Source: Shigella phage ESh26. Taken from it: a stretch of DNA of 64,000 bases. Below the pieces are notes generated by a model, which saw only the letters and a program-made list of their open reading frames with translations, made no database searches and was not told the DNA's origin. The position numbers and the translations under genes are program-made. Position 1 is the stretch's first letter. The number at the start of each line of letters is the position of its first letter. This document shows, piece by piece, positions 30,020 to 59,724 of the stretch. Location: sequence record ON528736; one strand, given 5' to 3'.

Positions 30020-30490
30020 TTAATCATGTTTCCACACCCCATCGGTATTTGACCAAAGTCGCTGATTATCTGATCCTCGCCACAGCTTTTTGGTCGGAAG
30101 ATTTTTCTCATACTTCCCATCAATAATAACATCAACATATTTAAGCATTTCTAGTTGTTTAATATCTTCAAACTTATATCCTGTCCACAACCAAATGCTT
30201 TTATTTGGATAAAGATTTTTTACTGTTTGAACCACAGAGTGAATAACATCTCGGTTATCGGGATAGAGAGGGTCTCCTCCAGTTATAGTTAATCCTTCTA
30301 TATAATCATTATTCAAACATTCAATTAATTGTTCTAGTGTTTCACCAGTGAATGGAACGCCATTTCTAGCGTTCCATGTTGATTTATTATAACACCCTTC
30401 GCATTTATGCAAACAACCTGTAACGAAAAGAACGACCCTGCATCCAGGGCCATTCACAAAATCGCAAGGATAAAATCTATCATAATTCAT
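30020..30490 (-). CDS. nrdG: anaerobic ribonucleotide reductase activase NrdG
   Basis: 156 aa; radical-SAM cluster CDFVNGPGCRVVLFVTGCLHKCEGC. Confidence 0.9.
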   Translation of the reverse strand: MNYDRFYPCDFVNGPGCRVVLFVTGCLHKCEGCYNKSTWNARNGVPFTGETLEQLIECLNNDYIEGLTITGGDPLYPDNRDVIHSVVQTVKNLYPNKSIWLWTGYKFEDIKQLEMLKYVDVIIDGKYEKNLPTKKLWRGSDNQRLWSNTDGVWKHD

Positions 30491-32304
30491 TGGTGTTTAA
30501 CCCTATGCATGATTTCTTTATTTTTGCCGAGATTAAATCCGCGTTCGTTCGGATTTCCCAAATAACCACAAGTTCTTCTTATTGTGTTCATCTTTTTAGG
30601 ATCAGTTTCTCCACAAATAGAACAAACAAATCCGTTTTCAGTAGGAGTCATTTCATGGGTACTTCCACATGTAAAACATTTATCTACTGGCATATTAACG
30701 CCAAAATAATCTAAATGTTGTGCAGCATAATCCCATACAGCCTCAAGACCTTTTAGGTTATTTTTCATATCAGGAAGTTCAACATAAGAAATGTGACCGC
30801 CTGTCGCAATGAAATGATATGGTGCTTCGCGAGAAATCTTTTCAAACGGAGTGATATTTTCTTCTACTGAAACATGGAAACTGTTAGTGTACCATCCTTT
30901 ATCAGTAACGTCTTTTACACTTCCATATTTTTCAGTATCAAGTTTACAGAAGCGATAACAAAGGTTTTCAGCAGGTGTAGAATACAAACTAAAAGCAAAA
31001 CCGGTTCTTTCAGTCCACTGTTTAAGACGAGCATTCATTTTAGTCAAAATTTCCTGTCCAATATCACGACCGACAAGAATATTCAATTCGTGAATACCAA
31101 TGTATCCTAGGGACACTGAACTTCTACCGTTTTTAAATAACTCAATTATGTCGTCATCAGGTTTAAGACGAACCCCGAATGCACCTTCTTGGTAAAGAAT
31201 AGGAGCAACAGTCGCTTTAACTCCTTTTAAGGAACTAATTCTACACATCAAAGCTTCAAAACACAAATCCATTCGTTCATTGAACAATTCGGTAAATTTC
31301 TGTTCATTGAACTGTGTTCCAATATAAGAATCTAATGCGATACGAGGAAGATTCAGTGTTACAACACCGAGATTATTACGTCCATCAAGAATTTCATTAC
31401 CAGTCGAATCTTTCCATACACTCAAGAAACTACGGCAACCCATTGGAGAAACAGGAATAGATGAACCGGTGATAGCTTTATTATTCTTAACTGAAATAAT
31501 ATCAGGATACATTCTTTTGCTTGCACACTCTAGAGCAAGCTGCTTAATATCATAGTTCGGATCGTCTTTATAAAGATTAACGCCTTCTTCAACGAACATA
31601 ACAAGTTTAGGGAAAATAGGAGTTATCCCATCGCGACCAAGGCCTTTAATACGATTTTTCAGAATTGCTTTCTGAATCATTCGTTCAGTCCAGTCAGTTC
31701 CCGTACCAAACGTAATTGTCACAAAAGGCGTTTGCCCATTTGAACTAAAGAGAGTATTTACTTCATATTCATAAGCTTGGAATGCATCGTATACGTCTTT
31801 TTCTGTTTTAGATTGAGCGTAATTCAACGCATCAGCGATTTGCCATTTTTCTGCATCCTCAATATGTTTTGCATAGGTGCGTTTAACATAAGGAGAAAGT
31901 ACTTTATCTACATTAGCAAAAGTCGTTCCGCCATATTGATGAGAAGCAACCTGCGCAGTAATTTGTGCCATAATTGCAGTAGCAACGCCGATTGATTTAG
32001 GAGTTTCAATCTGTGCATTACCGAGCTTAAATCCGTTTTCAAGCATTCCTTTTAAATCTACTAAACAGCAATTAGTAAATGGAAGAGCAGGGGAATAATC
32101 AATATCATGGAAATGGATAATTCCGCTTTCATGTGCTTTCATAATAAAAGACGGGACCATATTTTTGGCAATGTGTTTAGACACAATACCAGCCATAAGG
32201 TCCCGTTGAGTTGGAAAAACACGAGAATCTTTATTAGCATTCTCGTTCAAAAGGTCTTTATTAGTTTTATGAATCAATCCTTCAATTTCTTTTTCAATTG
32301 TCAT
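30487..32304 (-). CDS. nrdD: anaerobic ribonucleoside-triphosphate reductase NrdD
   Basis: Uninterrupted 605-aa ORF; C-terminal zinc ribbon and glycyl radical region. Confidence 0.95.
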   Translation of the reverse strand: MTIEKEIEGLIHKTNKDLLNENANKDSRVFPTQRDLMAGIVSKHIAKNMVPSFIMKAHESGIIHFHDIDYSPALPFTNCCLVDLKGMLENGFKLGNAQIETPKSIGVATAIMAQITAQVASHQYGGTTFANVDKVLSPYVKRTYAKHIEDAEKWQIADALNYAQSKTEKDVYDAFQAYEYEVNTLFSSNGQTPFVTITFGTGTDWTERMIQKAILKNRIKGLGRDGITPIFPKLVMFVEEGVNLYKDDPNYDIKQLALECASKRMYPDIISVKNNKAITGSSIPVSPMGCRSFLSVWKDSTGNEILDGRNNLGVVTLNLPRIALDSYIGTQFNEQKFTELFNERMDLCFEALMCRISSLKGVKATVAPILYQEGAFGVRLKPDDDIIELFKNGRSSVSLGYIGIHELNILVGRDIGQEILTKMNARLKQWTERTGFAFSLYSTPAENLCYRFCKLDTEKYGSVKDVTDKGWYTNSFHVSVEENITPFEKISREAPYHFIATGGHISYVELPDMKNNLKGLEAVWDYAAQHLDYFGVNMPVDKCFTCGSTHEMTPTENGFVCSICGETDPKKMNTIRRTCGYLGNPNERGFNLGKNKEIMHRVKHQ

Positions 32305-49244: not shown

Positions 49245-49565
49245 TTATTCTTTAAATCTAATCAATTTATTCATAGACTTTGAAACTTCTGCACGGACCT
49301 CATGTAGGTTTTTAAGCTGTTCAAGACGCTGCTCATAGTAAGCAATTTCATCTTCTTCGAGACAGTCCTGTGAATCTTCTTTAAGATAACGTGCATAATC
49401 CTGGAAAGCTTTACGGACTACTTCTTGGAAGTCATCAAGACTTTGAATTTTCTTAGGAGCAACAGATACACGACGAGGGGCAGTATAATACTCATAACCA
49501 AACCCTGCGCTTAATTGAGCCATTAATATTTTTCCTCTGGTTGGAACACAGCACGACAAGCCCAC
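49245..49565 (-). CDS. hypothetical protein (vs.x)
   Basis: 106-aa ORF. Confidence 0.45.
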
Positions 49566-49825
49566 ATACTGGCTTCTTTGAGTTTCGTTTTAGCAATAGT
49601 TAACTGATCGAGGCTTTCAGCATAATTCTTCGCGAATTCACAGTCTTCACAATTATCTAGTGCTTCCCAAAATTCATCGTATAAAGCGTCAAAGATAAGT
49701 CCTAAACGAACTTCAGCGTCTTTGATAGCATTCACTTTACCGATTTTCTCTTCAGTGTGCGGCTTATAACCTTTAATGTCTTCAATCATATTTGACTTCC
49801 TCACCAGTACATAAATCATATTCAA
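49523..49825 (-). CDS. hypothetical protein (vs.x)
   Basis: 100-aa ORF. Confidence 0.45.
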
Positions 49826-50003
49826 CTAAACGAATAGGTTCATGAATGCCATATCCTTGAACAGAAATTTCTGTCGTAGGATAAATTCCATCAATATCAC
49901 CCATGGTCCACGCTTCATTAAATTGCTGTTCGCCTGAATTACTAAACCACTCGGCGAAAGCATTTAACACATCTTTAGAACCTTCAATAATTATCTTTGC
50001 CAT
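49782..50003 (-). CDS. hypothetical protein (vs.x)
   Basis: 73-aa ORF. Confidence 0.4.
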   Translation of the reverse strand: MAKIIIEGSKDVLNAFAEWFSNSGEQQFNEAWTMGDIDGIYPTTEISVQGYGIHEPIRLVEYDLCTGEEVKYD

Positions 50004-50365
50004 TACAAGCTCTCAGTAAAGGTACGAGCGATAACGTCGCGCTGCTGTTCCGGAGTCAGAGAGTTAAAGCGAACTGCATAACCGGATACACGGATGGTCA
50101 GCTGCGGATATTTTTCCGGATGCTTAACTGCATCTTCAAGAGTTTCACGACGCAGAACGTTAACGTTCAGGTGTTGACCACCTTCAATTTTAACTGTAGG
50201 CTGTGATTCAATTTCAATTTCACGGGTGTGCAAACCGTAGAAAATTTCTGGGTCTACAAAAGAGTCCTCTTTAAAGGTTTTAGAAACAATAATTCGTGCT
50301 TGAATACCATCTTCAAAATAAATAGTACCTTTATGTGTGCCTTCAAGAATTTGATATGCTTTCAT
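50003..50365 (-). CDS. autonomous glycyl radical cofactor (GrcA/YfiD-like)
   Basis: 120 aa; C-terminal half [42 protein letters not shown] matches the GrcA glycyl radical domain. Confidence 0.85.
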
Positions 50366-50371
50366 ATAACC

Positions 50372-50701
50372 TCAATTAGAAAATAAATTTATCCAAGACT
50401 GTTCTTTAATTAAAAATGGCTCAGAATCATATGCCATTAAACTTTGGGTGATTAGTCCTTTAAAAGGTCCATCAATAAATTCCATGGTAAAATATGGAAT
50501 TTTATTCATTAATCTTGCATTAGGAGCAGTACACAAAACTCTGCATCCTTTGAATACACCTTTTTGTAATTTGTATTGCTTAGGATAAAATTCGCTCAAG
50601 ACGTTGTTATTTGCCAAAATTTCAAAATGATTCACCAATTTATTTTTAATAGTTTTTGGCGAAAAATAAAGATATTCGAAAAGCTGTGTGTCTGTCATCA
50701 T
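50372..50701 (-). CDS. hypothetical protein
   Basis: Start set at MMTDTQLFEY to remove overlap with upstream gene. Confidence 0.4.
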   Translation of the reverse strand: MMTDTQLFEYLYFSPKTIKNKLVNHFEILANNNVLSEFYPKQYKLQKGVFKGCRVLCTAPNARLMNKIPYFTMEFIDGPFKGLITQSLMAYDSEPFLIKEQSWINLFSN

Positions 50702-51237
50702 TGCATTCCGATTACGAAAAACTGCGGACGAGTAATACCACCAATGCAACATTTAATATTACAGCAGTAGTGTACAGTGTCAATATGGACACTATAAATC
50801 TTATCCATATCAGGAGATTTAACAGGCTCATCAATTATATACAAAATTCGAGAAAGCGATAAACCTCTGAACTTGCTTCCTTTATTACCGATAAAACTAC
50901 GGACAGAATCAGTAAATAAGCGGAATCGAATATCATCACTAGAATAACGAGAAAATTCTTTTTTAATGTGGCCTGCAGAAATTTTAGCGTAAGCTGAAGT
51001 ATTAGAAAGAACAATAACTGTTCCACCGTCATACAGCCAATTAGCAGCAAAGTTAGTCACAGCAGTTGATTTACCAGATTGACGTCCACCATCTAGTCGA
51101 AGTGTGCAATACTGTTTGAGTAAGTCTTCAAATGGTGGGATATAATCGTTTTTACAAATTTCTTCTACTCTAGCATCAGAATGGTGTGTAAAAGCATTCA
51201 TCAGGGATAGATAAGGGCCAGTTAAAAATGTTCTCAT
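50698..51237 (-). CDS. small P-loop NTPase
   Basis: Walker A GGRQSGKST, Walker B ILYIIDEP; start at MRTFLTGPY after promoter-RBS cassette. Confidence 0.5.
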   Translation of the reverse strand: MRTFLTGPYLSLMNAFTHHSDARVEEICKNDYIPPFEDLLKQYCTLRLDGGRQSGKSTAVTNFAANWLYDGGTVIVLSNTSAYAKISAGHIKKEFSRYSSDDIRFRLFTDSVRSFIGNKGSKFRGLSLSRILYIIDEPVKSPDMDKIYSVHIDTVHYCCNIKCCIGGITRPQFFVIGMQ

Positions 51238-51390
51238 TTTATTCTCTCTAAATTTGGGCCATTCCATGGCACATGAATTGTCCATTTCTGTATTTACCCA
51301 TTACCGCACTCAGGCTCGACCTTATTACAGGTTGGCGGGAATCCCTCATAGAATCATGAGGTCCAGCTTGTTCCCATATTTCTTATTTGC

Positions 51391-51789
51391 TTATTTGAAT
51401 GATTTGACGTACTGAATAGAACCTTTACTATTCACGAAAGCGATTTTACCATTTTTGTTATACATGGTAGCAGTACGCTGATAGCCATAAGTTTGCTTAC
51501 CAGATTGATAACCAACTAATGCAAAATTATCTTCACCCATTTTATTCTGCTTCGCGCGGATACGTTCATGACCGTGCGCCATAAGAACCTTAGCATCGCC
51601 AGTTGAAATTGATCTACGAGTTTTTTCATCTTCAACTGTACTAACAAAGTCGTCAAATGAATCAAATTTAGCATGAGATTTATTATACAGTTTTCCATCT
51701 ACTGCATAATTATATCCCTGTACATCCATCTCAACTTCTGTACCATCATCCAATACAGCAGTGATTTTTTGACCTTTTTTAAATTTCAA
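51391..51789 (-). CDS. hypothetical protein
   Basis: 132-aa ORF. Confidence 0.5.
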   Translation of the reverse strand: MKFKKGQKITAVLDDGTEVEMDVQGYNYAVDGKLYNKSHAKFDSFDDFVSTVEDEKTRRSISTGDAKVLMAHGHERIRAKQNKMGEDNFALVGYQSGKQTYGYQRTATMYNKNGKIAFVNSKGSIQYVKSFK

Positions 51790-58703: not shown

Positions 58704-58779
58704 TGGTCGAGGCAGTAGGGATCGAACCTACGACCTAGGACTTAGAAGGTCCTTGCTCTTCCTTCTGAGCTATGCCCCG
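58704..58779 (-). tRNA. tRNA-Arg (anticodon TCT)
   Basis: Manual cloverleaf: acceptor CGGGGCA/TGCCTCG, loop CTTCTAA, T-loop TTCGATC, encoded CCA. Confidence 0.85.
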
Positions 58780-58783
58780 TAAT

Positions 58784-58859
58784 TGGGGTGACCGATGGGG
58801 GTCGAACCCATGACTACGAGAATCACAATCTCGAGTTCTACCAACTGAACTACGGCCAC
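58784..58859 (-). tRNA. tRNA-His (anticodon GTG)
   Basis: Manual cloverleaf: acceptor GTGGCCG/CGGTCAC, loop TTGTGAT, discriminator C, encoded CCA; no G at -1. Confidence 0.75.
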
Positions 58860-58972
58860 ATTAATACCTACTCCAACAATCAAGATGTCTTCACACGAAA
58901 TTAAGAGAAGAGTGATCAGTTCAACCCTATAATCGCGTCAAGTAGATATTAATGTGACAGTTGTCACAAATT

Positions 58973-59047
58973 TGGCGGACGTGATAGGATTCGAACCTAT
59001 AACCAATCGCTTAACAGGCGATCGCTCTGCCATTGAGCTACACATCC
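58973..59047 (-). tRNA. tRNA-Asn (anticodon GTT)
   Basis: Manual cloverleaf: acceptor GGATGTG/CACGTCC, loop CTGTTAA, T-loop TTCGAAT, encoded CCA. Confidence 0.8.
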
Positions 59048-59051
59048 AAAT

Positions 59052-59138
59052 TGGTGGGGAGTGATGGAGTCGAACCACCCGAGTCGCAATGACAATGGAT
59101 TTACAGTCCACACCGCTACCTCTACGGGATAACTCCCC
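59052..59138 (-). tRNA. tRNA-Tyr (anticodon GTA), long variable arm
   Basis: 87 nt; acceptor GGGGAGT/ACTCCCC, loop CTGTAAA, T-loop TTCGACT, encoded CCA. Confidence 0.75.
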
Positions 59139-59151
59139 TTAATTCTTAATT

Positions 59152-59226
59152 TGGTGGCCCTGGGTGGAATTGAACCACCATCTGGCGATTATGAGTCGCT
59201 TGCTTGAACCTTCCAGCTACAGGGCC
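59152..59226 (-). tRNA. tRNA with anticodon CAT (Ile-lysidine type as in T4, or Met)
   Basis: Acceptor GGCCCTG/CAGGGCC, loop CTCATAA, T-loop TTCAATT, encoded CCA; position after tRNA-Thr. Confidence 0.75.
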
Positions 59227-59227
59227 T

Positions 59228-59303
59228 TGGTGCTGATTGACGGAATCGAACCGCCGACCTTCTCATTACAAGTGAGTTGCTCTACCTACTGAGCTAAATC
59301 AGC
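59228..59303 (-). tRNA. tRNA-Thr (anticodon TGT)
   Basis: GCTGATTTAGCTCAGTAGGTAGAGC...CTTGTAA...GGTTCGATTCC...CAATCAGCACCA. Confidence 0.9.
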
Positions 59304-59308
59304 AAAAC

Positions 59309-59398
59309 TGGCGGAGGCGATAGGATTTGAACCTATGAGTCGCCGGAGCGACTGCCGGTTTTCAAGACCGGTGCATTAAACCACTCTGCCACGCCTCC
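59309..59398 (-). tRNA. tRNA-Ser (anticodon TGA), long variable arm
   Basis: 90 nt; GGAGGCGTGGCAGAGTGG...CTTGAAA...GGTTCAAATCC...CGCCTCCGCCA. Confidence 0.9.
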
Positions 59399-59400
59399 AG

Positions 59401-59474
59401 TCTCCATACAAGGATTTGAACCTTGGACCTCCTGATCCCAAATCAGGCGCTCTACCAAACTGAGCTACACGGAG
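59401..59474 (-). tRNA. tRNA-Pro (anticodon TGG), CCA not encoded
   Basis: CTCCGTGTAGCTCAGTTTGGTAGAGC...TTTGGGA...GGTTCAAATCC; 2 nt from tRNA-Ser (dimeric precursor as in T4). Confidence 0.88.
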
Positions 59475-59484
59475 TAAATTAAAT

Positions 59485-59558
<74 letters not shown>

Positions 59559-59563
59559 AAATT

Positions 59564-59650
59564 TGGTGCGAGAAGTGGGACTCGAACCCACAAGGAAATC
59601 ATTCCGCAGCATTTTAAGTGCTGTGCCTTTACCAATTTGGCCATTCTCGC
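59564..59650 (-). tRNA. tRNA-Leu (anticodon TAA), long variable arm
   Basis: 87 nt; GCGAGAATGGCCAAATTGGTAAAGGC...CTTAAAA...GGGTTCGAGTCCC...CGCACCA. Confidence 0.9.
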
Positions 59651-59651
59651 G

Positions 59652-59724
59652 CTGGGAATAAAGGACTCGAACCTTTGCATCCTGGAATCAAAATCCAGTG
59701 CCTTACCAACTTGGCTAATTCCCA
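59652..59724 (-). tRNA. tRNA-Gln (anticodon TTG), CCA not fully encoded
   Basis: TGGGAATTAGCCAAGTTGG...TTTTGAT...GGTTCGAGTCC...ATTCCCAG; abuts tRNA-Leu. Confidence 0.88.

Follow-up and report, generated by a model that had tools for sequence, protein, structure and literature searches.

The vs.6 gene of Shigella phage ESh26, a probable orthologue of T4 Y06I, has a radical-domain half that appears to derive from Escherichia coli grcA

Results

The vs.6 locus and its surroundings

The window analyzed in the present study is a stretch of 64,000 nucleotides from Shigella phage ESh26 (sequence record ON528736). It is Tequatrovirus DNA, and over the 2.5 kb around the gene of interest its identity to T4-like phages of Escherichia and Shigella, e.g. 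ECP2301 and pSs-1, is 98%. The gene itself, vs.6, is an intact open reading frame of 120 codons running from ATG to TAA, and the interval reported in the initial annotation coincides exactly with this reading frame (Table 1). The gene order vs.8-vs.7-vs.6-vs.5-vs.4-vs.3-regB is that of the regB-denV interval in T4, and synteny with pSs-1 was also observed. The Shine-Dalgarno sequence of vs.6 overlaps the stop codon TGA of vs.7 (50372..50374), and the TAA of vs.6 shares 1 nt with the ATG of vs.5 (TAATG at 50001..50005). Given this stop-start overlap, vs.6 is tightly packed in a vs.7-vs.6-vs.5 run of small genes.

A sigma-70-like match lies upstream of vs.7 and is possibly an early promoter for vs.7-vs.6-vs.5; this candidate is a weak lead, as the consensus scan returned 14 sites against 11.8 +/- 3.5 in shuffled sequence, which is no excess, and nothing in the promoter and terminator scan of the sequence exceeded the shuffled expectation. 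A terminator-like hairpin was also called within the vs.6 coding sequence, at the edge of the host-derived tract described below. This call is probably due to chance, with such sites totalling no more than the shuffled expectation.

Table 1. Positions of vs.6, its parts and other features in the window
Feature	Position	Strand	Basis
nrdG, radical-SAM activase of NrdD	30020..30490	-	Pfam Fer4_12 4.4e-49, Radical_SAM 1.8e-07
nrdD, class III ribonucleotide reductase, own motif RRTCGYLG	30487..32304	-	Pfam NRDD (PF13597) 2.1e-171, Gly_radical 1.2e-25
T4 vs.4 homologue	49523..49825	-	Pfam Acb2/Tad1 hairpin domain, E 1.1e-19
vs.6 (Y06I) coding sequence, GrcA/YfiD-like autonomous glycyl radical cofactor	50003..50365	-	open reading frame, Pfam, 6OWR, T4 NP_049730, phrog_1209
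Putative host-derived 3' tract of vs.6, second base of codon I60 to stop, encoding the structured glycyl radical domain	50003..50187	-	grcA identity, GC, dS
Glycyl radical loop R92-V93-S94-G95-Y96-A97-V98	50072..50092	-	direct reading, alignment, HMMER
Terminator-like hairpin call, probably chance	50169..50183	+	
Phage-type 5' half of vs.6, residues 1-59/60, 178 nt	50188..50365	-	no E. coli DNA similarity, GC 0.33
Shine-Dalgarno GAGG, 4 nt 5' of the vs.6 ATG	50370..50373	-	direct sequence reading
vs.8-like open reading frame	50698..51285	-	phrog_2, Pfam AAA_14 (weak)
Sigma-70-like promoter match TTGACA-16-TAATAT, 5' of vs.7	50756..50783	-	consensus scan; weak
Open reading frame in the T4 ipII/ipIII position	51391..51789	-	
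tRNA cluster, 11 genes	58704..59724	-	

Several other features were observed in the window. The T4 vs.4 homologue, two genes downstream of vs.6, carries an Acb2/Tad1 hairpin domain, which is the family of the anti-CBASS/Thoeris cyclic-nucleotide sponges. The vs.8-like open reading frame differs in length from T4 vs.8 and resembles P-loop ATPases only weakly: phrog_2 (terminase large subunit) was matched with E 8e-6, and Pfam AAA_14 with E 0.008, which does not reach the cutoff. The T4 ipII/ipIII position, a known hypervariable internal-protein slot, is occupied by one different open reading frame, for which relatives carry the annotation internal virion protein or ipIV. The tRNA cluster contains genes for Arg, His, Asn, Tyr, Met/Ile(CAT), Thr, Ser, Pro, Gly, Leu, and Gln. 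The reference T4 has 8 tRNAs, so that those for His, Asn, and Tyr appear to be additional in ESh26, and in a minor megablast match the tRNA-Tyr gene (59052..59138) was 90.5% identical to a plasmid-borne tRNA-Tyr in an E. coli record.

A PFL-type glycyl radical domain

The initial annotation described the product of 50003-50365 as a GrcA/YfiD-like spare-part protein whose C-terminal half matches the glycyl radical domain of GrcA and pyruvate formate-lyase (PFL), including an RVSGYAV loop, and both statements are borne out by the present results. First, Pfam PF01228 (Gly_radical) matches residues 60-101 with E 2.3e-18 and 67.1 bits (cutoff 22.2). Second, HMMER matched residues 22-120 to PDB 6OWR (E. 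coli GrcA, E 9e-42) and aligned residues 58-120 to residues 697-759 of E. coli PflB (PDB 1H16, E 4.4e-26), whereas other glycyl radical enzymes gave E 1e-12 or worse. Third, residues 61-120 are identical to E. coli GrcA 68-127 at 60 of 60 positions, and these same C-terminal residues are approximately 80% identical to PflB 700-759. As judged from sequence, the match between vs.6 and GrcA is far beyond chance. In the alignment to E. coli GrcA, which had been proposed as a check, not only the conserved motif but the whole radical domain is identical. The loop extends from R92 to V98 and is invariant in 16 of the 16 phage, bacterial, and PflB sequences aligned, and 42 columns of the glycyl radical domain are invariant across phages and bacteria in this alignment. 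G95 (codon 50081..50083) is aligned by HMMER with GrcA G102 and PflB G734, in the numbering of PMC12338860, and is the predicted radical site of vs.6.

The domain is of the PFL type rather than the type found in class III ribonucleotide reductases: alongside the matches to GrcA and PflB, vs.6 lacks the NrdD-type radical motif RxxCGY and has no similarity to the phage's own NrdD. The protein also shows the features by which the spare-part class is structurally defined, namely a stand-alone size of approximately 120-130 aa, PF01228, a PFL-type loop, and the glycine. A single-sequence AlphaFold2 prediction gave an unusable model (mean pLDDT 38.8); the solved GrcA structure covers the identical domain.

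The N-terminal half is different. HMMER aligned residues 22-57 only weakly to GrcA 28-64. Against the NCBIfam equivalog TIGR04365 (spare_glycyl), vs.6 covers model positions 25-126 of 126 and scores 154.8 bits, below the cutoff of 170, because this half is divergent and shorter. In other words, vs.6 is outside the bacterial GrcA equivalog as modelled, yet the functional class includes T4 Y06I by experiment. The phage profile phrog_1209 was matched over its full length (residues 1-120 aligned to positions 1-121 of the 121 in the profile, E 8.7e-63), and within the spare-part class the protein is best assigned to a phage (Vs.6/Y06I) branch, not to the bacterial GrcA equivalog.

Relationship to T4 Vs.6 and to other homologues

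The closest characterized relative is T4 Vs.6 (NP_049730.1), labelled in RefSeq as 'autonomous glycyl radical cofactor GrcA'. The two proteins are of equal length and identical at 117 of 120 residues (97.5%), and the genes are 97.2% identical at the nucleotide level. ESh26 has T47, S54, and R73 where T4 has A47, P54, and H73; since R73 is also the state in E. coli GrcA, the H73 of T4 is derived. T4 Vs.6 also shares the neighbours, with vs.7 upstream and vs.5 downstream, and the mosaic with an E. coli-like 3' half, but shows small differences from ESh26 in the last three codons.

With E. coli GrcA (YfiD, 6OWR), vs.6 shares the radical glycine and the two-part layout of a variable N-terminal half followed by the radical domain. 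However, the N-terminal half of vs.6 is strongly diverged from that of GrcA, is 7 residues shorter, begins with the phage-specific MKAYQILEG, and has no DNA similarity to E. coli grcA. The two genes also differ in setting, vs.6 lying in a phage early-region cluster for expression whereas GrcA uses the grcA promoter. The RVSGYAV loop and its surrounding residues are identical in PflB, but vs.6 is without the barrel of approximately 700 residues that holds the catalytic cysteines C418/C419 and therefore cannot be a stand-alone enzyme.

Homologues of vs.6 were found in 1,514 phage records, comprising T4-like, T5-like, and jumbo phages. Those of RB16, Klebsiella Slopekvirus/Jiaodavirus, Aeromonas 44RR, T5-like Tequintavirus, and jumbo phages have the size, architecture, and invariant radical domain of vs.6. 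In jumbo phages, the matches were to the radical-domain half. The annotations of these homologues are inconsistent and include 'acetyltransferase', 'ribonucleotide reductase subunit', and '2-ketobutyrate formate-lyase'. The phage-type N-terminus of vs.6 is clearly shared by T4-like phages and is recognisable in T5-like phages, and in the alignment an N-terminal motif ending ARxIVSKT is common to T4-like phages and partly to T5-like phages, but not to bacteria. The T5-like Salmonella phage SE11 (320-688 of the compared locus) has an N-terminus, MKAYQNLKSG, nearer to the T4-like phage type than to bacterial GrcA. The resemblance of the T5-like N-terminus suggests that the gene may have spread from phage to phage across families.

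A mosaic gene with a host-like 3' tract

At the DNA level, vs.6 is a mosaic. The 185-nt tract at its 3' end is 98.4% identical to grcA in 5,426 of 5,426 complete E. coli genomes, and no DNA similarity to E. coli was detected for the first 178 nt of the gene or for either flank. The edges of the tract are sharp: identity begins abruptly at ...TTGAAGGTGG and stops at the stop codon, after which the phage vs.5 sequence follows. The two halves differ in GC content, with 0.49 for the 3' half and 0.33 for the 5' half. When the window was searched in its entirety by megablast against all E. coli genomes, no match was obtained in 1-50000, and in the search with 39001-64000 the tract was the only match present in every E. 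coli chromosome. The tract starts at GrcA codon 67, so that, relative to the junction of disordered and structured parts published for YfiD (60/61), the mosaic boundary lies approximately 6-7 codons further inside.

The longest exact in-register run shared with E. coli grcA is 125 nt in ESh26, 138 nt in T4, and 134 nt in the Mosigvirus phiC120, whereas the background, defined by bacterial grcA pairs at 78-86% identity, has a median of 17, a 95th percentile of 29, and a maximum of 56. In the other phage groups, the DNA identity of the 3' halves to any bacterial grcA compared is 72-87%, and their exact runs of 23-38 nt do not leave the upper tail of this background or exceed it only slightly, indicating that these groups are without a recent E. 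coli tract. Consistently, the homologues of Klebsiella, Enterobacter, Morganella, Aeromonas, and T5-like phages gave no outlier exact runs that would mark recent host-derived patches, as compared with 80 bacterial grcA loci, a set that excludes K. pneumoniae and the exact isolation hosts.

With respect to direction, E. coli grcA has diverged from its Citrobacter and Salmonella counterparts in an ordinary, even manner across both halves, and this normal vertical divergence indicates transfer from host to phage. That host sequence has recently replaced the radical-domain half of vs.6 at least once is well supported by the sequence comparisons. We propose that vs.6 is an old resident of T4-like phages, and that in Tequatrovirus and Mosigvirus its radical half was recently overwritten by E. 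coli grcA via homologous recombination. In the literature searched, no description of a host-identical tract or of gene conversion in vs.6 was found.

The same identity might in principle result from extreme constraint, or from an assembly or contamination artefact, instead of from recent transfer. The domain is indeed invariant or nearly so at the protein level in phages and bacteria, as would be expected under constraint. However, the residues encoded by RB16, phiKp11, and KP179 are the same or nearly so, yet the dS against E. coli is 0.9-2.1, showing that synonymous sites are free. RB16, with 60 identical residues and saturated synonymous divergence, in particular indicates that the identity of the T4 type reflects recent replacement and not nucleotide constraint. 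The GC content of the tract is also host-like, and its occurrence in approximately 640 independently sequenced phage genomes, including the reference T4, excludes an artefact. We therefore consider these explanations very improbable.

Selection, age, and number of transfer events

The radical domain is under very strong purifying selection. In the 3' half, RB16 and E. coli differ at 32 synonymous and 0 non-synonymous sites (dS approximately 2, dN 0), and dN/dS among phage pairs is 0.004-0.10 in the 3' half compared with 0.08-0.34 in the 5' half. The dS of the ESh26 tract against E. coli is 0.069, which is similar to the 0.044 between E. coli and a cryptic Escherichia species and much lower than the 0.39 between E. 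coli and Citrobacter or the 0.98 between E. coli and Salmonella.

An E. coli-like tract of at least 95% identity was present in approximately 640 phage records, with the best at 99.5% and none at 100%. All of the approximately 750 tract alignments begin at one 5' position, and Yersinia-isolated Tequatroviruses keep the E. coli-like tract. This common 5' edge and the retention in Yersinia phages point toward one founding replacement that then spread.

Other observations point toward more than one event, or toward later spread from phage to phage. Between ESh26 and Mosigvirus phiC120, the tract forms an island of 95-100% identity, compared with 83-90% in the 5' half and 45-85% in the flanks. The dS for this pair is 0.144 in the 3' half versus 0.449 in the 5' half, values resting on small counts (6 versus 12.5 synonymous differences), and the tract looks younger than the split between Tequatrovirus and Mosigvirus. 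The last three codons also vary, being GAG AGT CTA in phiC120, GAA AGC CTG in E. coli, GAG AGC TTG in ESh26, and GAA AGT TTG in T4. The phiC120 codons represent the phage-ancestral state, as in RB16 and phiKp11. This variation resembles the variable ends of conversion patches and could reflect them; ordinary mutation is also possible.

Residues hinting at a match to the host were observed outside the E. coli phages as well. Klebsiella phage vs.6 proteins have LLDAVEH, as in Klebsiella/Salmonella GrcA, and E. coli phages have LEDAVKH, as in E. coli GrcA. In the loci compared (vs.6 at 401-763 in KP179, 401-763 in phiKp11, and 360-722 in RB16), each protein agrees with the GrcA of its host group, although the DNA is only approximately 80-87% identical to any bacterial grcA compared. 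The Klebsiella-type residues could be due to convergence on the host or to short patches of conversion.

Discussion

In the present study, the vs.6 gene of Shigella phage ESh26 is best explained as the orthologue of T4 vs.6/Y06I (NP_049730.1), encoding an autonomous glycyl radical cofactor, and we assign this joint reading a probability of approximately 0.9. Gene, family, and function were known beforehand, with experimental characterization in T4, and the ESh26 copy is an ordinary intact allele.

The published work on this class is informative about the probable function. PMC8683613, with reference to Wagner et al. 2001 (PMID 11444864), lists only two spare-part proteins as validated, E. coli YfiD and T4 Y06I. 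As described there, both proteins receive a radical from the PFL-activating enzyme and form an active complex with oxygen-cleaved PFL, restoring its activity. The statement of the initial annotation that T4 carries a protein able to repair oxygen-damaged PFL is thus in agreement with what this source reports for Y06I. In the published account of YfiD, residues 61-127 adopt the fold of PFL 693-759, and residues 1-60 are disordered, aiding binding and radical installation but being dispensable for catalysis. Oxygen cleaves PflB at G734, and the radical on GrcA G102 is described in PMC12338860 as abstracting hydrogen from PflB C419. For ESh26, in which the intact gene, motif, and domain, the orthology to T4 vs.6, and purifying selection are observed, radical uptake from PflA and rescue of cleaved PFL would be expected by analogy with T4 Y06I (97.5% identical). 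The N-terminal half of vs.6 is only weakly similar to that of GrcA and is 7 residues shorter, so that details of binding may differ.

Herein, we propose the following sequence of events. During infection of an anaerobic or microaerobic host, oxygen would cleave host PflB at its radical glycine, G734. The vs.6 protein would then bind the cleaved PflB, with its C-terminal 60 residues taking the place of the lost radical domain, and host PflA would install a radical on G95. This radical would pass to C419 of PflB, and pyruvate would once more be turned into acetyl-CoA and formate. The infected cell would be unable to make new PflB or GrcA, and vs.6 might therefore keep PFL going under fluctuating oxygen. 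The resulting activity may supply ATP, via acetyl-CoA and acetate, together with formate, which may serve as the reductant of the phage NrdD/NrdG. Both the advantage for the phage and the connection of formate with NrdD are what we infer here. The literature searched gave no phenotype in vivo for phages with a mutated vs.6.

The most serious variant of this proposal is that vs.6 acts as a general radical donor or booster for a full-length PFL lacking its radical, or for the paralogue TdcE, and not strictly in the repair of the cleaved enzyme. According to the strain table of PMC12338860, GrcA restores formate production with PflB G734A, which is full length and uncleaved, and the abilities that GrcA has through its radical domain are probably shared by vs.6, in which that domain is identical. 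However, the in vitro work on Y06I cited in PMC8683613 used oxygen-fragmented PFL, and such a donor would represent a variant of the same mechanism and not an alternative family. The sequence does not separate the two modes, and we regard a general donor role as possible but rather doubtful.

The initial annotation also stated that vs.6 is accompanied by nrdD and nrdG, and both genes were located in the window by Pfam. The presence of vs.6 together with nrdD/nrdG may reasonably be read as an investment in anaerobic metabolism. Most characterized ribonucleotide reductases of class III take formate as their reductant, and for T4 NrdD a formate site has come under discussion (PMC4493059). Around the one T5-like homologue inspected, no nrdD or nrdG annotation was found within 35 kb, and for this reason the co-occurrence of vs.6 with nrdDG is not established.

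A further idea is that vs.6 is a spare part for the phage NrdD itself, activated by NrdG. Both genes are present in the same genome, NrdD is a glycyl radical enzyme that is oxygen-cleaved at its radical glycine, and a role in nucleotide metabolism was speculated by Nolan et al. 2006 (PMC1524935) from the shared Pfam domain. Against this idea, BLASTP of vs.6 with the NrdD of ESh26 gave a best E of 2.7, away from the radical site, and the motifs differ (RRTCGYLG in NrdD versus IRVSGYAV in vs.6). Moreover, the vs.6 domain is 100% that of GrcA and approximately 80% that of PflB, and Y06I is activated by the PFL activase in the account of PMC8683613. On the BLASTP result and the motif difference, a spare part for NrdD was rejected, and its chance of being correct appears very slight. 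Weaker still is a decoy that competes for PflA or cleaved PFL and lowers host fermentation, which is hardly credible: an abundant mimic of the radical domain could in principle titrate PflA, an idea with no specific support, but vs.6 retains the catalytic glycine and an entirely intact domain, on which purifying selection is strong, and PMC8683613, where it treats these proteins, reports restored activity and not inhibition.

Returning to the spare-part protein proposed here, the question of how often its radical half was replaced is of evolutionary interest. We considered a "host-tracking" gene conversion, in which the radical half of T-even vs.6 is repeatedly re-copied from the grcA of the current host by phage recombination. 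This idea derives from an E. coli-specific tract that looks younger than the Tequatrovirus/Mosigvirus split, from the variable 3' edge, and from the host-matched residues in Klebsiella and E. coli phages. The single common 5' edge, the lack of any allele pair with 100% identity, and the E. coli-like tract in Yersinia phages argue against it, and we consider repeated re-copying unlikely, although less so than the constraint or artefact explanations discussed above. If it were true, the spare part would be kept perfectly matched to host PFL and PflA.

As for significance, vs.6 itself adds nothing new, being a near-identical allele of T4 Y06I in a T4 relative, and its host-identical half is a modest evolutionary footnote and not a new kind of system. 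The combination of vs.6, nrdD, and nrdG is in keeping with a phage adapted to the gut, an oxygen-poor and fluctuating setting in which a live host PFL would sustain ATP and formate. The DNA mosaic is a clean, datable case in which a virulent phage appears to have put host sequence in place of one part of an auxiliary metabolic gene, with the junction at the boundary of a protein domain. If such overwriting is recurrent, it would provide a simple model for how the auxiliary genes of phages stay compatible with the partner enzymes of their hosts.
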